Below are positions 772-60,569 of a stretch of DNA of 60,569 bases, piece after piece. Position numbers and translations under genes: made by a program. Every line of letters starts with the position of its first letter. Position 1 is the first letter of the stretch. Origin of the DNA: a virus; the IMG/VR virus record IMGVR_UViG_3300037780_000074; one strand, 5' to 3'. The notes under the pieces are model-generated. The model had not been told where the DNA came from. It worked only from the letters and a program-made list of their open reading frames with translations, and made no database searches.

Positions 772-1644
772 ATGAAAGAGAAAGAAAAGTTTTACTTTCA
801 ACATGATTATACAGCTGCATCAGATATTAAGATACAAGGATTAATGACAGAGTTCGGAGGTCTAGCGTATGCAATATTCTTTGGAACAGTTGAATTGTTA
901 CACCAAGAAACAAAACATAAGTTACCACTGAAAGAATATGTCTTTAGGACTATATCAAACATCATGGTAATAAAAGACCCTGAGCTTGTTAAAAATGTAG
1001 TAAGGAGTTGTATTGATGATTATGGACTGTTCGTTGAAAAGGATGGTTATTTCTACTCTAATAGAGTAATGCAGAACTTCAAGAAAAGAGAGGAGATAAA
1101 ACAGAAACGAGCTGAGGCTGGTAGAAGAGGTGGTAAAGCATCATCCAAGCAAGATGAATCAAGTGATGTGAAAGAGGAAAGCACACCTGAGCCAGAAGAG
1201 AAATCATCAAACCAAAACCAACCATACGGCAACCAAAAAGAAGCAAATGCTAAGCAAGTGCTTAAGCAAAATCAAGCAAATGGAAACAAAGGAAAGGAAA
1301 GGAAAGGAAAAGAAACAAAAAAGAAAGAAAATGCCTTAAGAAAAGGCAATGTACTTGATATTTTCCTCTCTGAATATCCTAAGCAGATAAACCGAGCCAA
1401 GCTTGAACCGGTACTCATGACCTTTGACGGAGACCTGCAAGAACTCGTAGATGGTGTACGGCGACTCAAAGCTTACTCTGAGGCATTGAAAACGGAGAAG
1501 CAGTTCATTCCGAATGCTGAGAACTTCATCAGGAATAAGGACTATCTGAACCCCTATGAGTTTACACCGCCAGACAATGACGATGAGTTAGAGGATGATT
1601 CTGAATTAAACTCTAAACTCGTTTATGAGCAAGGGGGTTATTAA
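772..1644 (+). CDS. Putative replication initiator/organiser (DUF4373-like N-terminus, Lys/Glu-rich linker)
   Basis: The N-terminus FYFQHDYTAASDIKIQGLMTEFGGLAYAIFFGTVELL resembles the Lin1244/DUF4373 N-terminal domain as recalled. It sits between the helicase and DnaB. Confidence 0.5.
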   Translation: MKEKEKFYFQHDYTAASDIKIQGLMTEFGGLAYAIFFGTVELLHQETKHKLPLKEYVFRTISNIMVIKDPELVKNVVRSCIDDYGLFVEKDGYFYSNRVMQNFKKREEIKQKRAEAGRRGGKASSKQDESSDVKEESTPEPEEKSSNQNQPYGNQKEANAKQVLKQNQANGNKGKERKGKETKKKENALRKGNVLDIFLSEYPKQINRAKLEPVLMTFDGDLQELVDGVRRLKAYSEALKTEKQFIPNAENFIRNKDYLNPYEFTPPDNDDELEDDSELNSKLVYEQGGY

Positions 1645-1646
1645 CC

Positions 1647-3062
1647 ATGAGCAGAAAACCACCTCCATTTTCCTATGAAGCAGAGATGATTGTCCTTAGT
1701 GCTATGATGCAAAAAGGAGAATGCATTGATATTGCTAGAGGAGAATTGGTAACATCTGATTTCTATAATGAGAAGCATTGTCTAATATTCGATGCTTTAA
1801 TTGAGATGCATGATAAAGATGAAAGGATAAACATACTTTCACTAGAGGAAAACTTAAAGAAGAGAGTTAAGTCAGATGTAGTACCAAGCAGAGTGCAATT
1901 AGCCAAAATTTTAAAAGAATCCTCAACTACACAAGATCTAAAGCAACATATTCTAATTCTATTGGAGAAGTCATTAAGAAGGCAAGTCTTAGAAGCAAGC
2001 AGAACAGCATTGCAGAAAAGCTATGAAGAACAATCAGAAATATTCGATACTATAGGAGAGTTAAGTTATAATGCAGAGCTAATACAAAGTAAGATTAAGA
2101 GTGAGAATCTACAACTTGACAACGAAAAATCAATTAATGATGCTTATGAATTTGGAAAAGGAATAATAACAGGAAAAATTCAATTACTTGATACACCTCT
2201 TCATGACCTCAATAGAAAAATGATGTTCTTACCAGGGGAGCTGTTAGTTGTTGGAGGTCGTCCATCCATGGGTAAAACTGCATTGGGTTTAACATTTGCA
2301 GAATACTGGTCTATGAAACATAAGACTGCGTTTATCTCACTAGAGATGACAGATCTAGCATTGACATTAAGAAGAATGAGTTTCTATACAGGGTATTCAA
2401 ATAGAGAATTACTGAAAGATGATGATAAGTTGAGGGAAGCTAGAAGTAAACTTATTGACATGGAGACAAACAATCTCATAATAGATGACCGATCTGATTA
2501 TCACTACAATAATCTAAAAGGAAGAATAAAGCAGTTAGTTAAGAAGTATGGTGTTAAGGTAGTAATTGCAGATTACTTGCAATTGTTTCCTAGTCAAGGA
2601 AATTCAAAGAGAGAGGAAGTAGGGAATATTTCAAACCTACTAAAAGCTATTGCTAAAGAATTAAATATCTACATGGTGTGCCTTGCTCAGTTAAGCAGAG
2701 AGAGTGCCAAAGGTGGTAAGACTCATAGTAGTTATTTCCCAAAGATGGACCACCTGAAAGAAGCTGGTGAAATCGAGCAAGATGCAGATCATATATTGTT
2801 AGTTCATAGACCCGAATACTATTTACCTAATAAAGATATTAATTTGGCTAACAGACAGGAGCCAGTTGCAAACCTTGGTATGCTTTTCTATTCAAAACAA
2901 AGAAATGGCCCAACTGGTATTATACCTATGACCTATGAAAAGCCTAGAATGAAGTTTACCAATTTTTTAAGTTGTCATGATGAAAAAGTGTATGATGAAA
3001 TAAGGAAAGAGCAGAGAAGAGACTACATGCACAAGCAAGAACAAGGAGAGAGTATTTTTTAG
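1647..3062 (+). CDS. dnaB: DnaB-like replicative DNA helicase
   Basis: The N-terminus PPFSYEAEMIVLSAMM is typical of the DnaB N-domain. Walker A is GGRPSMGKTALGL, and the C-terminal part is RecA-like (LAQLSRE, QDADHILLVHRPEYY). Confidence 0.9.
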   Translation: MSRKPPPFSYEAEMIVLSAMMQKGECIDIARGELVTSDFYNEKHCLIFDALIEMHDKDERINILSLEENLKKRVKSDVVPSRVQLAKILKESSTTQDLKQHILILLEKSLRRQVLEASRTALQKSYEEQSEIFDTIGELSYNAELIQSKIKSENLQLDNEKSINDAYEFGKGIITGKIQLLDTPLHDLNRKMMFLPGELLVVGGRPSMGKTALGLTFAEYWSMKHKTAFISLEMTDLALTLRRMSFYTGYSNRELLKDDDKLREARSKLIDMETNNLIIDDRSDYHYNNLKGRIKQLVKKYGVKVVIADYLQLFPSQGNSKREEVGNISNLLKAIAKELNIYMVCLAQLSRESAKGGKTHSSYFPKMDHLKEAGEIEQDADHILLVHRPEYYLPNKDINLANRQEPVANLGMLFYSKQRNGPTGIIPMTYEKPRMKFTNFLSCHDEKVYDEIRKEQRRDYMHKQEQGESIF

Positions 3063-3127: not shown

Positions 3128-4180
3128 ATGGAAATTCAAACTAAGCTCAAAGCACTAGCAGATAAGATTGACAAATTAAAAGACAAGATTGGAACAGAGG
3201 AAGCCACAAAGAATGCATTCATAATGCCGTTCTTAGATATATTAGGTTATGATATATTCAATCCCACAGAAGTAGTTCCAGAATTTATTGCAGATCAAGG
3301 CATCAAGAAAGGAGAAAAAGTTGACTATGCAATATTTCAAGATGATAATCCGATTTTAATTATTGAGTGTAAACATTGGAATTCAAAATTAGATGTTCAA
3401 CATACTCAGCTATTTAGATACTTCTCAGTATTGAAGACAAGATTTGCACTTCTTACAAATGGGATTGAGTATAGGTTTTATACTGACTTAGATAAAGCAA
3501 ATGTCATGGATTCTAAACCTTTCCTTGAATTCAATATATGTGAGCTAAAGGATTCAACAATCAAAGAAATCACAAAGTTTCAAAAGTCTTCATTTGATGT
3601 AAGTTCTATATTGGATAATGCAGGATATTTAAAACATACCAAAGAATTAAAGTCTATTCTGAATTCTGAACTTGATGAGCCAAGTCCAGAGTTTGTAAAA
3701 TTCTTCATATCTAAACTAAGCAAGTCCAAAAGAGCTACAGAAAAAGTAATTGACGAGTTCACACCACTTGTCAAAAAAGCGTTTGCCCAACTAATGAATG
3801 AGAAAGTTAATGCTAGGTTAACATCAGCTCTTACAAAAGAAGCTGAACAGCAAAAAGATGAATTAGAAGAAGAGAAACCAAAAAGTAAAATCGTAACTAC
3901 AGAAGAAGAAGAGGAAGCGTTTCAAATAGTTGTTGCAATCCTAAGAAGAAAAATTCCAAAAGAAAGAATAACGCACAGAGATACACAATCATACTTTGGC
4001 ATTCTCCTCGATGACAACAACAGAAAACCTATTTGTAGACTACATCTCAATACTGAGAATAAGTATATCAGTCTTTTTGATAAAGATAAGAATGAGAACC
4101 GCCAGCAGATGAATTCAATTGATGATATATACAAGTTTGAAAAAGAAATTCTTGATGTGGTAGACTATTATGAAGATTAG
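3128..4180 (+). CDS. HsdR_N-type PD-(D/E)xK nuclease-like protein
   Basis: NAFIMPFLDILGYD ... VDYAIFQDDNPILIIECKHWNSKL is the D...ExK core typical of the type I restriction HsdR N-terminal (HSDR_N) fold. It is followed by an acidic linker and a C-terminal domain. Confidence 0.55.
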   Translation: MEIQTKLKALADKIDKLKDKIGTEEATKNAFIMPFLDILGYDIFNPTEVVPEFIADQGIKKGEKVDYAIFQDDNPILIIECKHWNSKLDVQHTQLFRYFSVLKTRFALLTNGIEYRFYTDLDKANVMDSKPFLEFNICELKDSTIKEITKFQKSSFDVSSILDNAGYLKHTKELKSILNSELDEPSPEFVKFFISKLSKSKRATEKVIDEFTPLVKKAFAQLMNEKVNARLTSALTKEAEQQKDELEEEKPKSKIVTTEEEEEAFQIVVAILRRKIPKERITHRDTQSYFGILLDDNNRKPICRLHLNTENKYISLFDKDKNENRQQMNSIDDIYKFEKEILDVVDYYED

Positions 4181-4751
4181 TATGTTTTTCATAATTGTAT
4201 TTATTGCAAGTGCATTTAACATCTATTCCCAGACTAAAGCAACCACGGAAAACGGAACTGAGGTTATTCTTTTCGATGATGGAACCTGGGAAGATTCTAA
4301 GGTTGTTAATAGAGGAGACTGTAAAGAGTTAATAAAACTCGTCGAGACAAATGAAACTACAGGTTTCATGTCAGAGAAACCATTAAATGTAGATTCAGGC
4401 AAGTTGACATTGTCTATTACATCAGTTAAGAATGGAAACGTTATAGTTGTATCAATGACAATCGAAGGAGATAAAAAACTTATCTGTATTGGTCCAGATG
4501 ATAAAGTTGTAATTACTAAGAACAATGGAAAGGAAATTGAATTACCTAAGTTGTCTGCGAAGAATTGCAAAGGTGAATATACTTTATTCATTGGCAAACC
4601 ATGGAAGACAACTGAATTAATAGAAACTCTTTCTAGTGGTCAAATCAAATCTATAAAAGTGAAATCCTATGAGTTTGAATTTAAGTTCTACCAATCAACA
4701 CTATTTCAGAAGACACTTAATTGTTTAGATAATGTAGAAATTAATAAATGA
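4170..4751 (+). CDS. Secreted/exported protein of unknown function
   Basis: N-terminal signal peptide MKISMFFIIVFIASAFNIYSQ. Overlaps the upstream gene by 11 nt. Confidence 0.6.
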   Translation: MKISMFFIIVFIASAFNIYSQTKATTENGTEVILFDDGTWEDSKVVNRGDCKELIKLVETNETTGFMSEKPLNVDSGKLTLSITSVKNGNVIVVSMTIEGDKKLICIGPDDKVVITKNNGKEIELPKLSAKNCKGEYTLFIGKPWKTTELIETLSSGQIKSIKVKSYEFEFKFYQSTLFQKTLNCLDNVEINK

Positions 4752-4760
4752 TTTAACATA

Positions 4761-4795
4761 CCCTGCTAGTTCTCTTTAGCGGGGTTATCTTTTTT
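4761..4795 (+). terminator. Hairpin plus T-tract between convergent genes
   Basis: ccctgcta/tagcgggg forms an 8-bp stem (one G-U) followed by ttatctttttt. It overlaps the last codons of the minus-strand channel gene. Confidence 0.5.
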
Positions 4796-5533
4796 AATTC
4801 TTTCTAAATAGCCTACACTTATTAAGCCTGTAGGTAGTGCAACTACTCCAATCCCCAGTAGTGAAATAATGCCACTAACAAGTTTTCCCATTGGGGTTAT
4901 AGGGTATATGTCACCATAACCAACTGTTGTGAGAGTAGCGACAGACCACCACATAGATACTAACACATTAGAAAAAACTTCTGGTTGAGCTGGATTTTCA
5001 ATATAATACATCAGAAAACCGCTAATGAATATCATAAAGAAAGTTAAAATAAGAGTGGAGATCAATTCATTTTTCTTATCAATTATGATTTCTTTAATTA
5101 GTAAGAGTGATTTCATATACCTGTTAAGTTTAAGTATCCTAAAAAATTTAAATATTCTTAGTATTCTTATAAACCTAAAATCAACTCTTAACAAAAAGGG
5201 TAGCAAAAAGGGGAGTAATGCTAGCAAGTCAATTATTCCATAAAATGAAAAAACAAACTTTAATATTGATTTGAATTTGCTACTAGCTGGATGAGTTAAA
5301 TCAGAAATATAAACCCTCAAACAGTATTCAAAAACAAATATTGTCATTATTGACTTACTTAGTAAATCAATATATTGTCTGTATTCAGCATAAATATCAT
5401 TAATAGACTCTATAATTAAAAGGATAATACTTATAATTATTAGTATAAATATTAGAAGGTTAAATATACTATTTTTACTCTCATCTTGATAGGCTATTAG
5501 ATTAAAAATCGCCTTTTTCAACATATCCTCCAA
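4766..5533 (-). CDS. Voltage-sensor-containing (6TM, Kv-type) potassium channel
   Basis: Selectivity filter TLTTVGYGD. S4-like helix RFIRILRIFKFFRILKLNR with a basic residue at every third position. About six hydrophobic segments. Oriented opposite to the flanking genes. Confidence 0.85.
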   Translation of the reverse strand: MEDMLKKAIFNLIAYQDESKNSIFNLLIFILIIISIILLIIESINDIYAEYRQYIDLLSKSIMTIFVFEYCLRVYISDLTHPASSKFKSILKFVFSFYGIIDLLALLPFLLPFLLRVDFRFIRILRIFKFFRILKLNRYMKSLLLIKEIIIDKKNELISTLILTFFMIFISGFLMYYIENPAQPEVFSNVLVSMWWSVATLTTVGYGDIYPITPMGKLVSGIISLLGIGVVALPTGLISVGYLERIKKDNPAKEN

Positions 5534-5725
5534 CTGGATAAATTTTAGAAAATGCTTAGTTGTTAAATTATAATATAATATATATTCAACACACTTTACT
5601 ATACCCTTACTCTATCATCCCCTTATTCAAACTTAATATTTTGCGAAAAATATGATTAATATTTGATATTCGTAAATAATTTATTAATTTAGTAAAGTGT
5701 TTAAAAAAGAGTTGCTGGAACAAAT

Positions 5726-5872
5726 ATGAAAAATAAGAAAAGTGAATACGAATTTGACAAGTTTGATTTAGGAGTTGAGTTGAGAAAACTTCAGGGGTCA
5801 TTACTCATTACTGACTTGATTACTGCAGGAGTTTTATTTGTTCTTGTTATGATTGGGTATCATTTGATATGA
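5726..5872 (+). CDS. Small membrane protein (48 aa; below the ORF-track cutoff)
   Basis: ATG at 5726. C-terminal hydrophobic segment LITAGVLFVLVMIGY. Its stop overlaps the ATG of the next gene (ATGA at 5869-5872). Confidence 0.35.
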   Translation: MKNKKSEYEFDKFDLGVELRKLQGSLLITDLITAGVLFVLVMIGYHLI

Positions 5873-7966: not shown

Positions 7967-8172
7967 CTAGAAAACAAAAGAGATTGCTCAAGTGTATCAA
8001 TGACGGTATTGTCAAAGTGAAAGAGTACACTCTAGAAGATAAGAATGTGAAGTCAAAATATGTTCTCATTGATTCAGAAGGGAATGCAGGTGTAGCTAGA
8101 CGTTCTGATGTCCAGGCATTAATTGATAACGGATTCTTGAAGATGAAAGAAAAGACTAAGGTAAATGAGTAA
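7954..8172 (+). CDS. Hypothetical protein
   Basis: ORF of 72 aa with overlapping start and stop junctions. Confidence 0.5.
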   Translation: MPKLTRKQKRLLKCINDGIVKVKEYTLEDKNVKSKYVLIDSEGNAGVARRSDVQALIDNGFLKMKEKTKVNE

Positions 8173-8371
8173 GTTTATAATAAAGAATAGCAAGGGTGTA
8201 ATGGTTGCTACACTTAATTTACACAGTCGAATGAAAGAAGAATTTAACGCTATGACCATATCGGAAAAGAATGAATATATGAGAAATATGTTAGCTAATA
8301 CTCCATACAGAGACTGCATAGTAGAAGAAATTAAATTCCCCTTTACAGTAACAATTGCAGGTAAAGAATGA
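8165..8371 (+). CDS. Hypothetical protein
   Basis: ORF of 68 aa. Confidence 0.5.
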   Translation: MSKFIIKNSKGVMVATLNLHSRMKEEFNAMTISEKNEYMRNMLANTPYRDCIVEEIKFPFTVTIAGKE

Positions 8372-8490
8372 GTAAAGACAAAATAATGACATTTAGACAA
8401 CTAGAATCCAAAGTAAACAAACTAGAATCCATAACTGTTCTGAATTCAATACTAATAGCAATGATGGCTGTCTTACTTTTAGTACTATAA
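8368..8490 (+). CDS. Small membrane protein (40 aa; below the ORF-track cutoff)
   Basis: The ATG at 8368 overlaps the upstream stop (ATGA). C-terminal hydrophobic stretch ILIAMMAVLLLVL. Confidence 0.3.
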   Translation: MSKDKIMTFRQLESKVNKLESITVLNSILIAMMAVLLLVL

Positions 8491-8493
8491 CAT

Positions 8494-8567
8494 AGCGTGG
8501 TGGAGTAAATGGTTACCTCACTTGTCTCATAAGCAAGAGATTACAGGTTCGAGTCCTGTCCACGCTA
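8494..8567 (+). tRNA. tRNA with CAT anticodon (elongator Met or Ile2-type)
   Basis: Folded by hand. Acceptor agcgtgg/ccacgct, D-arm gagt..cctc with GG in the loop, anticodon arm cttgt-ctCATaa-gcaag, T-arm acagg-ttcgagt-cctgt, discriminator A. Confidence 0.85.
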
Positions 8568-8641
8568 CAAAGTCATCTTAGAACAAACCAATAGAGGCAA
8601 CACTATGAAATAAGATAACTGAAAACAATACAATGTTGCAA

Positions 8642-13756: not shown

Positions 13757-13869
13757 GGCGAGGTGGCGGAATTGGTAGACGCATATTTCAAAAAAGGTGC
13801 TGAAATACGTAATGATTGGATAACTGGTAAATAGATAAGCTGGTGCAGGTTCAACTCCTGCCCTCGCCT
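13757..13869 (+). tRNA. Atypical 113-nt tRNA-like element (type-II-like acceptor, D and T arms; no canonical anticodon arm)
   Basis: Acceptor ggcgagg/cctcgcc, D-arm gcgg-aattggtaga-cgc and T-arm gcagg-ttcaact-cctgc are canonical. The 62 nt between the D and T arms contain no 5-7-5 anticodon arm. The only hairpin there is tatttc/gaaata with a 12-nt loop. Confidence 0.5.
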
Positions 13870-28052: not shown

Positions 28053-28554
28053 CAGAACCCCATGCTTTACTGAATTTGTGTTCTTTGATTATTTTCTCTT
28101 TAGGTATACCCTCAGAAATTCCAAGCTTTACAACTTCCTCTTCTTCCATTTGTAGTCTTCTCATTATCTCTTGAACAGGGACTTTATCTTTTATCATGTC
28201 ACCTACAATCTTAGACATCTTAAATACACCATGTGTACCCTTTGCTCTGTTGTGCCTTATGGTACTCATCTGTTGAGATACTATGTCAGTTGGATTTGTA
28301 GTTGTTACAGGGACTCTACCACCATCTCTTTCACGGATTCGTGGGTCATCTGAAGCTAACCACCTATGGTAACCATCAACTATTTCATTATTCGGGTTTC
28401 TAATTACTGGTTGCGTCCACCCATCTTCTAGAATTGATATTACTAATAATTCAAAATCATACTTAGTCATAGAGTTTGGATTGTAGTTGTTTGGTTTAAT
28501 TAACTCTCTATCAATCCATTCCACATTATCTATTGGTTGTTTAAACTTGCTCAT
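28036..28554 (-). CDS. ParB-like nuclease-domain protein (IbrB/DndB-like)
   Basis: NPNSM ... ILEDGWTQPVI ... IVDGYHRW ... IRHNRAKGTH. Confidence 0.7.
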   Translation of the reverse strand: MSKFKQPIDNVEWIDRELIKPNNYNPNSMTKYDFELLVISILEDGWTQPVIRNPNNEIVDGYHRWLASDDPRIRERDGGRVPVTTTNPTDIVSQQMSTIRHNRAKGTHGVFKMSKIVGDMIKDKVPVQEIMRRLQMEEEEVVKLGISEGIPKEKIIKEHKFSKAWGSDDRRK

Positions 28555-29686
28555 TCACAACCTCCATTTTCTTTCCTTTTTTAAATTTCATTGTAGCTGA
28601 TTTACGTTTTTTAAAATCTCCTCTGATTGCACAGTCACATAAAAACTTCCAGCTACAACCAGTTTTATAATGATTGTTTGCATCAGGTATCTTGTCATTT
28701 GTGTCTTTGTAATGTAGTTTGATAGAGGCATTAATTCCTTTTTGTACAACAGAGCGATAAGGTTCTTCGTATCCAGTCATAATTACTTTATAATATTCTT
28801 CCCACGTTTTGTAAGCAGGAGGTAATACTTTCCCAGTATATAAACCGACATTGGAATATCTAAGAGCTGTTCGTGCCCCTCTAACTCTATCTTGCATTTT
28901 CTCCCATAGGTCTGAATCAATTAATTGATATTCAGCTATACCTCTTAGAGGTTCTTCACCGAAAGCATTACTCACCCTTTGTTTCAAGAATCGATTGTGG
29001 TAACCAGGTAACTTATCTAATGCATCGTAAAACTTGTTATAATCCCATTCGAACTTCTGAATTGCTGACCAAACATCTTCACTTGTCCAATCATAAATTG
29101 GATGAGCTATATGGATATTACCATATCGATGAGAAATATAGTTGTCTGCTTTCTTTCTCAGAACAGCCATTCTTCTTCTTAAGCTTTCTTGAGCTCGTAT
29201 ACCTGTCAAAAAACAAACATTACCATTGTAGTCTTGATACATTTCATCACAGAATTGAGGCATAGTTTGGCCAGGAACAAATCTCCTATGCAGAGTGATT
29301 GCATTGTCAGGCAAATTCCTACACCATAACTGTTTCTTTGCAGGTTCCCATGGGTACCACCATGGCTCGTTGTTACTACAAGCATTTCTATGTCGAATAG
29401 GAATACAGTACCATTTAAAGTCTAAGTCTGCATTAGAAGATACTCTTTCTACGTATTCAACTGTTTGTGAAGTTATTGCCTCTTCGTCGATATATATTAC
29501 CTCAAGTGGTAGCTTTTTTAATTCTCTAGCTACTTCTAAAGCAAGGTTTAGAGCAATAGTAGAATCTTTACCACCTGAGAATGAAACAACAACTTTGTCA
29601 AAACGATTGAAACAGTCTTTAATCCTTTGCTTTGCTTCATCTAAAACATTTGTATTATATTCTATTCTATCGTGTGTTCTACTCAT
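28541..29686 (-). CDS. PP-loop ATPase of the PAPS-reductase family with a C-terminal extension (IbrA/DUF3440-like)
   Basis: PP-loop VVVSFSGGKDST. 381 aa with a conserved-looking Trp/Cys-rich C-terminal half. Confidence 0.7.
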   Translation of the reverse strand: MSRTHDRIEYNTNVLDEAKQRIKDCFNRFDKVVVSFSGGKDSTIALNLALEVARELKKLPLEVIYIDEEAITSQTVEYVERVSSNADLDFKWYCIPIRHRNACSNNEPWWYPWEPAKKQLWCRNLPDNAITLHRRFVPGQTMPQFCDEMYQDYNGNVCFLTGIRAQESLRRRMAVLRKKADNYISHRYGNIHIAHPIYDWTSEDVWSAIQKFEWDYNKFYDALDKLPGYHNRFLKQRVSNAFGEEPLRGIAEYQLIDSDLWEKMQDRVRGARTALRYSNVGLYTGKVLPPAYKTWEEYYKVIMTGYEEPYRSVVQKGINASIKLHYKDTNDKIPDANNHYKTGCSWKFLCDCAIRGDFKKRKSATMKFKKGKKMEVVNEQV

Positions 29687-51894: not shown

Positions 51895-53028
51895 TTATTT
51901 TGAGCTGTTTCGATTGAATTTAATTACCTCTTCAATATCCTCAGCACTCATTTTGTTCAAGTAATGTTTTGATTGTGTTTGAATACTATGACCAATTAAC
52001 GAACGTACGACATTATCATTTAATCTATAATCGTTCATCATCTCATTTTCTACTAATTTTCTAATTGCGTGGAATTTAACTTCTTCAACATTTTGAATGT
52101 TGAGCATTTTTCTATAGTTGTTTATATACACTCCCATTGAACCTGATGTTTTGAATCCTAGCAAAGAATTCTCACTCATGAAATATTTACTTTTAAATTC
52201 AAGTATCTCATCTAACAACTCTTTTAGACTTGGGTTGATTGAATAAGGGAATTCTCTCCACTTTTCATTTTTACCATGTATTAAGAGTTTGTTCTTCTGA
52301 ATATGCCAATCTTCCATTTTGAAAACTTCATCCCTTCTCATACCTGTAATACCAATCAACCTTAATGTGTACATTAATCTTAATGCTGCCATTTTACTCT
52401 TTGGCTTGGTGCATTCATTTATATAATTATTAAGTGTCTCTATGTAGTGATTTAATTGGTCTCTTGAGCATATAGTAAATTTGTAATTAGTGTTCTTGAT
52501 TTTCAACCAAGGCTTAATAGGGTTTGATAGTATAATGTCTGACTCTATACCAAAGTTGAAAACTGTTCTTAACTGGGTAAGTGAATTGTTGATAGTGGAG
52601 TCAGAATATCCCTCTTTGAATTTTAAATCTTTTACTCTGGAATCAATATATTTTGTTATCTCAAAAATATCGTTTAGGTAAAAGTCATTATTCTGCATTA
52701 GTAGCTTAATACCATTTATAAATGTAACTTTAGATATTTTTTTTAACCTCGAGAGTTTCAACTCTTTATATTGCAAGAATAATTCAGAGAAAGTATCAAT
52801 TCTATTAGAGTTAATCCCATTCTCTCTTTCAAAATATTCTCTGACTCTCTTGTCCAGAACTTGAATAGCAAACTCTTTGTTTGTTTTGTTCCAGGGTAAA
52901 TTTTTTATTGACTTCCTGTCACCAAATATATATGTATGTATATAGCCGTCCCTCTCAAAACAATATACTCCTTTCTTATAGTCAGGATGGTCCCATCGTT
53001 TTCCTTTTCTCTTTCTAGTCTTTCCCAT
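51895..53028 (-). CDS. int: Tyrosine integrase
   Basis: TGMRRDE (box I Arg), HAIRKLV (H-x-x-R), LIGHSIQTQSKHYL (His and the catalytic Tyr). Confidence 0.85.
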   Translation of the reverse strand: MGKTRKRKGKRWDHPDYKKGVYCFERDGYIHTYIFGDRKSIKNLPWNKTNKEFAIQVLDKRVREYFERENGINSNRIDTFSELFLQYKELKLSRLKKISKVTFINGIKLLMQNNDFYLNDIFEITKYIDSRVKDLKFKEGYSDSTINNSLTQLRTVFNFGIESDIILSNPIKPWLKIKNTNYKFTICSRDQLNHYIETLNNYINECTKPKSKMAALRLMYTLRLIGITGMRRDEVFKMEDWHIQKNKLLIHGKNEKWREFPYSINPSLKELLDEILEFKSKYFMSENSLLGFKTSGSMGVYINNYRKMLNIQNVEEVKFHAIRKLVENEMMNDYRLNDNVVRSLIGHSIQTQSKHYLNKMSAEDIEEVIKFNRNSSK

Positions 53029-53425
53029 CTTTAGTTTTTTCTTTCAGTTTCTTAGCAAGTAGTTTAATGTATTCATGAGTTTCTTCATCTTCAGCTACAT
53101 TACTCTCATCTGTAAAAAAAGATAATAAAGTGTTAAGTGTGTCCGGAAACCAACTAAAGTCATTTAATAATTGAGGAACTGCAAAGTGTCTTTCTATATA
53201 TGAAAGTGTCGGAAATATAATTTCATAATCTAGTGAGCACTCATATAATGTTTGAAGTTCTAATAAGCAGAATTTATAAAAATTCTCAGTGTGTTCGAAA
53301 AGTGCATTGTATTCAATAATAGCCTGTTCTGCAGTTATATCTTCATTAGAAAACACAACACGTTCAGCAATTCTTAAGCATCTAACTCTAAGTCTGAACT
53401 CAATTTTTCTTTCCAGCTGGAGCAT
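53015..53425 (-). CDS. Hypothetical protein in the lysogeny module
   Basis: 136-aa ORF between the repressor and the integrase. Confidence 0.5.
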   Translation of the reverse strand: MLQLERKIEFRLRVRCLRIAERVVFSNEDITAEQAIIEYNALFEHTENFYKFCLLELQTLYECSLDYEIIFPTLSYIERHFAVPQLLNDFSWFPDTLNTLLSFFTDESNVAEDEETHEYIKLLAKKLKEKTKDGKD

Positions 53426-54158
53426 AGTCCTTTATAACCTTTTTTACTATTCCAAAAATTATAAAATCTTCCATATCACCTAACTTTATATCTTTCACAC
53501 CAACGGAATCAGACTTTAGGATAATACTCCCATTCTTTTGATGAACAAGGTGCTTAACGATCGGCATTCCATTCAGAGCACCAACAATGGTGCAATCATA
53601 GTTTGGCTTATTAGTACACACCTCAAATATTATTATGTCACCAGAATTAACTCCTGCATCTTGCATAGAGTCACCATTAACATAGATTGCATCATGAGAC
53701 TTTTCATCAATACTCATGCCTAATGCTAAAGGCATATATGTAGTAGGTAAATCATTAAGGTCTGTTAATGTACCTGTAGCAGCACTTGCACTCATAATGT
53801 GAAGCTTAATGTTTGCGAGCATACCTTGAAATTCTTTTGGTATTCTATATACCTCTTCTTTGTATTTTTCATGTGTATCTTCTACTCTATTATTGAATAT
53901 GTCCTTCTTCTTACCAGAACCTCTAACTGGTAAGTTTTCTAATACGGCTGGTTCACCAACCCCATGAAGATACCATTCAATATTTATACCAGTTTTACTC
54001 AGTCTGTTCAAAGAAGACTTATTAGTATAAACTCTATCAGTATTTAAATATGTATTTAATGTAGATGGAGTCACTCCTAGAGTGTCTGCAAAATGAGTCA
54101 GATTATTATAGTAATCCTCAATGAACTGTCTTAATCTTTCCTGCGGTGTGTCTGCCAT
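53400..54158 (-). CDS. CI/LexA-like repressor (HTH plus S24 peptidase)
   Basis: N-terminal HTH (LTHFADTLGVTPSTLNTYL). C-terminal YVNGDSMQDAGVNSGDIIIFE ... IVKHL (Ser and Lys of the S24 family). Confidence 0.85.
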   Translation of the reverse strand: MADTPQERLRQFIEDYYNNLTHFADTLGVTPSTLNTYLNTDRVYTNKSSLNRLSKTGINIEWYLHGVGEPAVLENLPVRGSGKKKDIFNNRVEDTHEKYKEEVYRIPKEFQGMLANIKLHIMSASAATGTLTDLNDLPTTYMPLALGMSIDEKSHDAIYVNGDSMQDAGVNSGDIIIFEVCTNKPNYDCTIVGALNGMPIVKHLVHQKNGSIILKSDSVGVKDIKLGDMEDFIIFGIVKKVIKDYAPAGKKN

Positions 54159-54183: not shown

Positions 54184-54264
54184 TACGAAAAATTTTATGA
54201 AAATATTTGTTTTTCATAAATTAATTATTAAATTCGTAAAGATAATACGATAATGATACGAAAA
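54184..54264. promoter_or_regulatory. Candidate operators in the divergent immunity control region
   Basis: 10-bp perfect inverted repeat tttatgaaaa/ttttcataaa (54194-54203/54211-54220). tacga(a) is repeated at 54184, 54246 and 54257, and in inverted form as ttcgta at 54234-54239. Confidence 0.5.
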
Positions 54265-59785: not shown

Positions 59786-60569
59786 ATGAAACTAAGAGAT
59801 TATCAGGAGCAAGCAAAAAAGAAAATAAGAGAATCGTTCCAAAAGGGTAATAGGAGTGTCATGCTCCAATTACCCACAGGAGCAGGTAAGACGGTATCGT
59901 TTGTTAATATAGCTAAAGACGTAATTGATAAAGGTAGAAGTGTTCTTATACTCGTTCATCGACTTGAATTAATTAAACAGACGTTTGAAAAGTGTGCAAG
60001 GCATAACCTACAAGTATCTGTTATTCATAGTGACTTTGTTTATAAGAAATATTGCAAACTTCAAATTGCATCTGTGGCCACTTTAGCAAATAGAGTAAGA
60101 AGTTCTAAATCAAAATCATTACCTGAGGATATAGACTTAATTATAATTGATGAAGCTCATCATGCTACAGCTAATAGTTGGAGAGATATAATAAAGTTCT
60201 ATCCTGAGGCAAAGATACTAGGAGTAACAGCTACACCAGTTCGTTCAAATGGTGAAGGGTTTGAAGATCTATTTGATGACTTAGTAGTAGGAGTAACACC
60301 CAAATATCTAATTGAAAAAGGTTATTTAGCAAAGCCAAAGCTATTTGTAAATAAACTAAGATTTGATTTATCTAAAGTTAAAGTTAAATCTACTGGCGAT
60401 TACAACGAAAGAGACTTAGTAAATAGTTATGAGCAGTCTACCACCTATGGAGATTTGATTAAGACATGGAGAGACAAAGCTAATGACATGAAAACTGTTG
60501 TGTTTGGAATAAATATAGATCATGTCAAAAAAATAGTAAATGCATTCAATGAAGAAGGAATACCTGCAG
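59786..60569 (+). CDS. SF2 (DEAD/DEAH-type) DNA helicase, N-terminal half; continues at base 128 after circular closure
   Basis: ATG at 59786, open to the window end. Motif I LPTGAGKT, motif II IIIDEAHHA, motif III GVTATP. Absent from the ORF track because there is no stop in the window. Confidence 0.85.
   Translation, partial: MKLRDYQEQAKKKIRESFQKGNRSVMLQLPTGAGKTVSFVNIAKDVIDKGRSVLILVHRLELIKQTFEKCARHNLQVSVIHSDFVYKKYCKLQIASVATLANRVRSSKSKSLPEDIDLIIIDEAHHATANSWRDIIKFYPEAKILGVTATPVRSNGEGFEDLFDDLVVGVTPKYLIEKGYLAKPKLFVNKLRFDLSKVKVKSTGDYNERDLVNSYEQSTTYGDLIKTWRDKANDMKTVVFGINIDHVKKIVNAFNEEGIPA
60443..60569. repeat. Right copy of exact 127-bp terminal direct repeat
   Basis: Identical to bases 1-127. 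Confidence 0.95.

Follow-up and report, generated by a model that had tools for sequence, protein, structure and literature searches.

Why would a temperate phage carry a complete voltage-gated potassium channel? The question is raised by a gene in the virus record IMGVR_UViG_3300037780_000074 of IMG/VR, a stretch of 60,569 nucleotides that was analysed at its full length and is referred to here as the window. An open reading frame (ORF) on its minus strand, 4766..5533, encodes 255 residues from a TTG start, and a first-pass annotation made from the letters alone had read it as a K+ channel with both a voltage sensor and a pore, encoded by a temperate phage. Work on viral K+ channels has dealt almost entirely with the minimal, pore-only proteins that algal viruses encode, and what voltage-gated K+ channels do for prokaryotic physiology is itself poorly understood. 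The domain, fold and genome-module evidence described here upholds that annotation. Our best explanation, to which we would give a probability of about 0.6, is that the gene encodes a K+-selective Kv-type channel which was captured by the phage, has been kept by selection and is most likely made in the lysogen, where it would provide a voltage-triggered path for K+ efflux.

Within the ORF, an ATG at 5524, three codons in, is the likelier start than the TTG at 5533, because the N-termini of related proteins align there. It gives a product of 252 residues that equals the JGI gene call P0001 (100% identity), which carries the name 'voltage-gated potassium channel', and we take the coding sequence to be 4766..5524 on the minus strand; residue numbers below are those of the 255-residue ORF. 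The Pfam family Ion_trans (PF00520) matches residues 22-241 over profile positions 2-232 of 241, scoring 92 bits against a cut-off of 25, and Ion_trans_2 matches residues 164-236 with 55 bits. The profile of phrog_7872, a family labelled 'unknown function', aligns residues 14-250 with positions 5-222 of 254 (E=1.3e-50). When PDB sequences were searched, KCNQ2 and KCNQ5 were the best matches (E=7e-23, residues 22-250); KvAP followed at E=6e-17 (residues 23-240), and Kv2, Kv4 and Kv1/Shaker also aligned.

At the level of individual residues, the K+ selectivity filter TLTTVGYGD (residues 200-208; 4910-4936, minus strand) is invariant among 18 homologues and is preceded by a pore helix (190-201). 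The S4 helix, RFIRILRIFKFFRILKLNR (residues 120-138; 5120-5182, minus strand), carries seven basic residues at a spacing of three, namely R120, R123, R126, K129, R132, K135 and R138. R123, R126 and K135 are invariant in the same homologues, R120 and R138 nearly so, and the charge ladder is also kept in the phage-borne copies. Further invariant positions in the alignment (A1) are E42 in S1, F66, E69 and R73 in S2 (as F66-x-x-E69-x-x-x-R73) and D102 in S3. E42, F66, E69 and D102 would supply the acidic counter-charges and the aromatic charge-transfer residue of S1-S3, and by the spacing of the motif in S2 and S3 we assign them to the F290, E293 and D316 positions of the Shaker channel. The 'LPTG' of S6 aligns with 'LPAG' in KCNQ channels.

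An AlphaFold2 model of the monomer, built on the 18 homologues, has a mean predicted local distance difference test score (pLDDT) of 81.6 and contains six transmembrane helices and the pore helix. The predicted sensor helices are S1 (23-43), S2 (52-75), S3 (86-114) and S4 (120-133), which together with the S4 charges and the invariant residues of S1, S2 and S3 place a voltage-sensor domain at residues 23-138 (5120..5467, minus strand). A predicted S4-S5 linker helix (136-152) leads into S5 (154-179), the pore helix and S6 (214-249), and the pore domain so formed (residues 154-249; 4787..5074, minus strand) includes the Ion_trans_2 match. The top 50 PDB chains retrieved with Foldseek were exclusively Kv7, Kv4, Kv2, Kv1 and Shaker channels, aligned over approximately 255 columns with template modelling scores of 0.55-0.69. 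The filter in a 255-residue ORF, the S4-like helix with seven basic residues at every third position and the roughly six hydrophobic helices of the first-pass annotation are therefore all found at the residues given above. The structural comparison with KvAP-like channels that it had proposed comes out in the same sense, as the predicted monomer matches Kv7, Kv4, Kv2 and Kv1 over its own full length and KvAP is matched by sequence.

Several narrower classes do not fit. The NCBIfam model NF040645, for the MVP-type hyperpolarisation-activated K+ channel, scores 47 bits, below its cut-off of 300, and PRK10537, which describes Kch with its six transmembrane helices (6TM) and RCK domain, scores 30 bits against a cut-off of 425 and in the pore region only. 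The protein has no C-terminal RCK domain and ends shortly after S6. Nor does it belong with the Kcv-like class of pore-only proteins with two transmembrane helices (2TM; approximately 80-130 residues), given its 252 residues and voltage sensor. On sequence and predicted fold together, we regard as secure the assignment of the product to the 6TM voltage-gated type (Kv/KvAP/KvLm-like) with a K+ filter. It presumably assembles as a tetramer.

The genome that carries this gene has the marks of a complete phage. Positions 1-127 of the window are identical to 60443-60569, and the ORF of a DEAD/SNF2-type helicase crosses the junction (59783 onward, continuing to 756), so that the window represents a complete circular assembly of approximately 60,442 bp. 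It corresponds to JGI contig Ga0394804_000318 (metagenome 3300037790). Contigs of about 60.5 kb from several other samples represent the same phage, in every case in its excised form. Its G+C content (GC) is 34.3%. PHROG scans identified a replication module (helicase, initiator, DnaB and a Sak4-like protein), an HSDR_N endonuclease, a methyltransferase and a Mor-like regulator, a minus-strand packaging block (large terminase, portal, minor head protein and neck) and a plus-strand block of head and tail genes (protease, major capsid and tape measure). Two lysogeny genes lie on the minus strand, which is also the channel's: a tyrosine integrase (51895-53028; phrog_1, with a weak match to PF00589) and a CI/LexA-like repressor with an S24 peptidase domain (53400-54158; phrog_4, Peptidase_S24 and NCBIfam UmuD/LexA-type matches). 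Judged from this gene content the window belongs to a temperate tailed phage, as had been proposed. A near-identity DNA search of GenBank phages with window positions 1-25000 gave no match.

Whether the channel is part of this phage or a passenger in it was approached through its relatives. Two diverged related phages (loci L001 and L005) carry the channel in the same slot, their proteins being 74% and 69% identical to that of the window (P0002 and P0004); these are the closest proteins with readable context. One of the two relatives sits on contigs of 146 and 293 kb and is therefore integrated. In both, the slot consists of the endonuclease, a 189-residue secreted-type protein, the channel on the opposite strand and a set of genes encoding 49, 153, 142 and 100 residues. 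The neighbouring genes are 38-88% identical to their versions in the relatives, and as the channel falls within that range it has kept pace with the divergence of the phage backbone. Among the phage copies the proportion of differing nonsynonymous sites (pN) is 0.14-0.18 and that of synonymous sites (pS) 0.73-0.80, the latter being saturated, which gives a ratio of the corresponding rates (dN/dS) of roughly 0.1 or less and points to strong purifying selection. At 0.245, the GC of the channel's third codon positions (GC3) is within the values shown by the other genes of the phage.

These comparisons bear directly on the view that the gene is a recent pick-up of host DNA, or a mis-assembly, with no function for the phage. 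Its identity of approximately 50-63% to chromosomal proteins and its AT-rich composition, which resembles that of chromosomal homologues, would fit such an origin. Against it stand the circular contig with phage genes on both sides, the assembly of the same phage in several samples, the slot kept in two diverged relatives at neighbour-like identity, the strong purifying selection and the conservation of a flanking hairpin and of the upstream region. Disrupted copies and gene-less relatives were not seen among the relatives found, and we reject this explanation as extremely improbable. The first-pass annotation had called the gene a 'moron'; the recent insertion implied by that term sits badly with the shared slot, the co-divergence and the phage-like GC3. 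In the survey of the insertion point that it had recommended, both of the relatives found carry the channel in the same slot. A wider survey anchored on the flanking endonuclease returned 160 IMG/VR and metagenome loci (L084-L243), none with the channel or another neighbour from the window; no empty-site relative was seen among them, the loci belonging to unrelated phages. From these comparisons, the channel is best described as an old, selected and vertically inherited accessory gene of its phage lineage. The HSDR_N endonuclease (phrog_4225) itself has hundreds of relatives of 50-67% identity on unrelated viral contigs, human-gut and marine (TARA) ones included, which suggests a phage gene that is mobile or exchanged on a wide scale.

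The ultimate source of the channel seems to be cellular. The protein belongs to a very large family in bacteria: of 8,000 scored candidates, 6,129 had E below 1e-10, and relatives in GTDB genomes span many phyla. Typical homologues have about 263 residues and are approximately 50% identical to the window protein, with Bacteroidota examples in Fulvivirga ligni, Sunxiuqinia indica and Ancylomarina euxinus. This chromosomal 'ion transporter / voltage-gated potassium channel' family is 48-63% identical to the window protein over its full length and has the same invariant sensor and pore residues. It differs in context and at the C-terminus: the closest chromosomal proteins (P0005 and P0006, 61-63% identity) lie in housekeeping-gene surroundings and have a C-terminal extension of about 70 residues, and most of the others in alignment A1 end in a CPHCG motif, whereas the phage clade (the window protein and P0002-P0004) has neither and stops approximately 15 residues after S6. 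It is likely that an ancestor of the phage captured the channel from this common bacterial family, in which the best matches are from Bacteroidota. From the distribution of homologues and the 34% GC of the genome, we infer that the host is Bacteroidota-like.

How isolated is the window channel among viruses? A scan of IMG/VR with a single channel protein as the query returned nothing, but a search with an alignment retrieved relatives of near-full length on 24 contigs, and the viruses concerned range from 33 to 70% GC. Full-length Ion_trans proteins are also encoded in three deposited viral genomes, those of Dulem virus 33 (XCD07631), Lactobacillus phage PLE2 (gp27) and Halorubrum virus Humcor1 (HrrHm1_130), the last of which is already annotated in its record with 'pfam00520 ... 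six predicted transmembrane domains'. These three and the IMG/VR copies keep the S4 ladder, the S2 and S3 residues and the filter. The three deposited proteins thus share with the window channel a full-length Ion_trans domain, an S4 ladder, a K+ filter and a temperate virus as carrier; at 29-32% identity to the window protein, however, they represent independent captures. In a distance tree the phage-borne copies fall in approximately ten separate groups. One group of 11 members (from L054-L064 and L068) is viral only; its members share 60-68% identity with one another and about 50% with the sampled cellular sequences, and it is provisionally phage-specific, the cellular sampling being biased to the window protein. 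When the flanks were scanned with PHROG, phage genes were found on both sides of the channel in six IMG/VR loci. Channel matches also occurred in records named 'Listeria phage LM', but these are unverified and unannotated fragments of 6-8 kb and were not counted as phage evidence.

The published record is thinner. Greiner 2018 (PMC6163359) describes 2TM channels in phages of Mycobacterium, Vibrio, Acinetobacter, Pseudomonas and Streptomyces and one protein of '4 TM' in Lactobacillus phage PLE; voltage sensors in phage channels are not mentioned there, and the searchable literature covers 2TM and 4TM proteins only. In the BFVD library of viral structures the matches were pore-only, with E of 0.018 or worse, and none was full-length. 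The first-pass annotation's view that a phage channel with a voltage sensor is unusual is therefore accurate for the searchable literature and BFVD but not for sequence collections, given phrog_7872, the three deposited genomes and the 24 IMG/VR contigs. By sequence comparison, the window channel is one case of a recurrent and catalogued, yet essentially unstudied, class of phage cargo. Two details of this class may be added. PLE2 gp27 (L083:2839-3618), surveyed in 2018 as a 4TM protein, matches Ion_trans with residues 14-218 (positions 1-234 of 241), has an S4 ladder and is probably a 6TM channel with sensor and pore. C-terminal tails also vary, as the PLE2 channel has a SHOCT domain and those of Humcor1, L054 and L062 keep a CPxCG motif.

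Of all the results, the recurrent placement of these genes between a repressor and an integrase is the most informative. Every ORF of the fetched loci (31 viral and 48 chromosomal) was searched with profiles, and an integrase was found within the fetched flanks of 14 of the 31 viral loci against 2 of the 48 chromosomal ones, and an XRE/CI-like repressor in 14 of 31 against 0 of 48. In ten loci repressor, channel and integrase follow one another on one strand (L055, L056, L057, L059, L063, L064, L068, L074, Dulem virus 33 and PLE2), the last two being complete genomes. The start of the channel gene of Dulem virus 33 overlaps the stop of the repressor gene, and the latter is opposed by a second, divergent XRE gene; PLE2 has a helix-turn-helix repressor, then an ImmA-like protease, the channel and the integrase, opposite a Cro-like gene and an antirepressor. 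A position between repressor and integrase is typical of genes made in the lysogen, and the placement of the homologues therefore supports expression in the prophage state for the class. By analogy, it is plausible that the window channel is also expressed from the prophage. Its own arrangement differs from that of Dulem virus 33 and PLE2 in that the gene is a separate unit in the early region rather than a member of the repressor-integrase operon.

Its surroundings suggest that the channel forms a unit of its own. From 13 to 21960 every ORF of at least 90 residues is on the plus strand apart from the channel and two others, one lying inside a plus-strand gene (4223-4597) and one having no counterpart in the relatives (8119-8400). 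All credible genes of the block except the channel are thus on the plus strand, in agreement with the earlier claim of a sole minus-strand gene in 22 kb. The left anchor of the slot is the HSDR_N-type endonuclease (3128..4180, plus strand; phrog_4225 with E=2e-129, PF04313), which is 80% identical in L001 and L005. It is followed by a convergent neighbour known from its translation (4170..4751, plus strand; 193 residues with a signal-peptide-like N-terminus), which is syntenic in the relatives, evolves faster than any other gene nearby (38-41% identity in L001 and L005) and had no match in Pfam, PHROG or PADLOC.

Between the two convergent genes, and overlapping the stop codon of the channel, a terminator scan and folding place a G+C-rich hairpin (4760..4785) with a 10-bp stem that includes 5 G-C pairs. 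Its arms (ACCCC.../...CAGGGT) are kept in L001 and L005. As the T-run is on the plus strand, the hairpin primarily terminates the convergent gene 4170-4751, although it may serve both directions and so be shared by the two genes. The first-pass annotation had the hairpin bounding the 3' end of the channel gene; it is present and conserved there, but the T-run makes it first of all the terminator of the plus-strand gene. On the other side, an AT-rich divergent intergenic region (5525..5725), recognised by composition and conservation, is presumed to hold promoter or regulatory sequences for both the channel and a plus-strand operon that begins at 5726. The part outside the ORF, 5534-5725, is 192 nt long with 21.9% GC, matching the AT-rich region of 190 nt described previously. 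Column identity across the three phages is 72%, with long invariant blocks, and because this conservation holds while adjacent synonymous sites are saturated, the region is likely to be under selection as a control region. A perfect inverted repeat with arms of 11 nt, ACACTTTACTA (5591-5601) and TAGTAAAGTGT (5690-5700), is also present there but has no conserved equivalent in the relatives. No Rfam family reached its gathering score in the region, and a sub-threshold snoRNA match was dismissed as a product of AT-rich sequence.

The channel accordingly appears to be a self-contained transcription unit, antisense to the early and middle lytic operons. The independence proposed for it earlier agrees with its strand, the conserved hairpin and the conserved upstream region; no promoter motif was above chance. 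This arrangement could also be read as that of an auxiliary gene of the lytic cycle, whose product, made early after infection or induction, would manage host K+, turgor and membrane potential during replication. It would restore the potential after the depolarisation of entry, or would set the timing of lysis by holding off a holin that might trigger too soon. The gene does lie at the boundary of the replication module and the Mor-like activator operon, outside the lysogeny operon, and the conserved divergent control region is common to the channel and the operon from 5726. Infection causes depolarisation and K+ efflux (PMC10274716), and the K+ channels of algal viruses work during infection (PMC6163359). 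However, the channel is opposed to every lytic gene of the 22-kb block, its homologue in 10 other viral loci occupies the repressor-integrase position typical of prophage-expressed genes, and tailed phages have no membrane with which to deliver a channel at entry. We consider a lytic role rather unlikely.

If the channel is made in the lysogen, as we prefer, its action may be pictured as follows. The protein, which has hardly any cytoplasmic tail, would have its canonical S1-S4 sensor coupled to a KcsA-like pore by the helical S4-S5 linker. It would most likely be made in the lysogen, by analogy with the at least 10 viral loci that have the repressor-integrase placement, and possibly also early in infection. 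At a strongly negative resting potential the channel would be shut and would cost the lysogen little. It would open on depolarisation, which might come from another phage as it adsorbs or injects its DNA, from agents that damage the membrane or from approaching holin triggering; K+ would flow out, the potential would be pulled towards the K+ equilibrium potential and the cell would be drained of K+. The prophage would gain either a buffer against depolarisation or a means of interfering with superinfecting phages. It is known that cells are depolarised and lose K+ when phages adsorb, and that depolarisation impedes further phage entry (PMC10274716). KvLm, a minimal 6TM channel from bacteria, is selective for K+ and activated by depolarisation (PMC2151562). 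Taken together, these reports imply that a voltage-gated K+ path could protect the energisation of a lysogen or hinder superinfection. The tetramer, the conductance, the gating polarity, the timing of expression and the benefit are all elements of this picture that we infer. The roles suggested in the first-pass annotation (a change of host membrane potential, exclusion of superinfecting phage, tuning of lysis timing) are likewise hypothetical.

A number of observations weigh against this explanation. The window channel is outside the repressor-integrase operon, some 12 kb away, and the equivalent slot in the window's own immunity operon holds a soluble protein of 136 residues. Sigma-70-like sites are not enriched (8 found, 10 expected) and none stands out upstream of the channel. 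The Bacteroidota -7 motif TAnnTTTG occurs once upstream (5628-5635) but is missing from that place in the relatives, and its count in the whole window shows no enrichment (62 found, 80 expected). The upstream region shares three 9-mers with the repressor/Cro switch, a number matched by 11% of random windows and so not significant. Conserved charges do not reveal gating polarity, a caveat also made in the KvLm paper (PMC2151562), and the nearest NCBIfam model is of the hyperpolarisation-activated MVP type, though far below its cut-off. PADLOC-DB gave no match for the channel or for nine neighbouring or lysogeny-region proteins, and a RexA-like partner was not found. Finally, K+-selective efflux would be expected to repolarise rather than collapse the membrane, so that abortive infection of the RexB-like kind is no obvious outcome.

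Expression in the lysogen need not imply a role against other phages. The channel could be a lysogenic conversion gene that benefits the host, adding a voltage-gated K+ conductance for K+ or osmotic homeostasis, or for electrical signalling in a community, with no direct anti-phage role. It is an ordinary member of a family kept on bacterial chromosomes, the lysogeny-operon position seen in other phages is equally compatible with this, and bacterial K+ channels have been linked to membrane-potential dynamics in biofilms (PMC11928028). On the other hand, a chromosomal copy is already present in relatives of the likely host group, which leaves little obvious gain from a second one, and the loss of the C-terminal tail from the phage copies suggests altered regulation instead of simple duplication; we think a pure host benefit quite unlikely. 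A bolder extension of the voltage-triggered efflux that we prefer would make Kv-type channels a widespread, unrecognised lysogeny cargo of bacterial and archaeal temperate phages, acting as a one-protein protection device. Such a device would sense the depolarisation caused by an incoming phage or another attack on the membrane and release K+, and would thereby block or abort superinfection or rescue the lysogen's potential, in the manner of RexB but without RexA, and the window lineage would have moved it from the immunity operon to a transcription unit of its own. This wider scheme, taken as a whole, is doubtful, and we offer it as a speculation.

Some further features of the phage were noted in passing. 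Between the repressor gene and divergent small genes is a palindrome (54194-54220) with 10-nt arms, TTTATGAAAA ... TTTTCATAAA, which is a candidate operator of the genetic switch. A PAPS-reductase/DUF3440 protein (phrog_2302; 28541-29686, minus strand) is encoded inside the packaging block beside the terminase genes. A tRNA-Met (8494-8568) was called by both Rfam and ARAGORN; a second tRNA-like element (13757-13869, plus strand), unusually long at 113 nt, scored 40.8 bits with Rfam and is not called by ARAGORN. The replication module is mosaic, in that window positions 772-3062 encode the initiator and DnaB helicase where the relatives (L001:11038-14036 and L005:14295-17293) have a Lin1244_N protein and a primase-helicase fusion instead, the flanking genes being common.

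The main interest of this locus is a testable link between voltage-gated K+ channels and lysogeny. A tail-less channel of 252 residues with a full sensor, held under selection by a phage, provides a concrete setting in which to ask what bacterial voltage gating is for, and so do the relatives that many temperate phages carry inside the repressor-integrase operon. Compact natural Kv proteins are also useful for biophysics. Should the gene only add a redundant K+ conductance, it would be a case of routine host-gene capture.

Set beside known systems, the window channel is closest in build to KvAP of Aeropyrum pernix and KvLm of Listeria monocytogenes, which have approximately 250-300 residues, S1-S4 with a pore, no large cytoplasmic domain and a TVGYGD-type filter. 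Those channels are cellular, whereas that of the window is phage-encoded. Kv7 (KCNQ) channels are the best PDB matches in both sequence and fold across S1-S6 and have 'LPAG' where the window protein has 'LPTG'; the likeness is confined to the transmembrane core, at 21-23% identity, and the window channel lacks the calmodulin-binding and tetramerisation helices that follow S6 in Kv7. In its proposed use, the channel can be compared with RexB of lambda and RexB-like components of prophage abortive-infection systems, membrane proteins that form an ion pathway and are encoded beside the repressor (cI-rexA-rexB in lambda); common to both is the idea that ion flux decides what becomes of a superinfecting phage (PMC7542560). 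This is an analogy only, as RexB-like proteins have four transmembrane helices, are not K+-selective, need a cytoplasmic RexA-like sensor and have no homology to the window channel. With the Kcv channels of chloroviruses and the channels of Vibrio, Mycobacterium, Acinetobacter and Pseudomonas phages it shares a viral genome, the K+ signature and the pore module (PMC6163359). Those proteins are 2TM and pore-only, of approximately 80-230 residues, and to their plan the window channel adds a complete voltage sensor.

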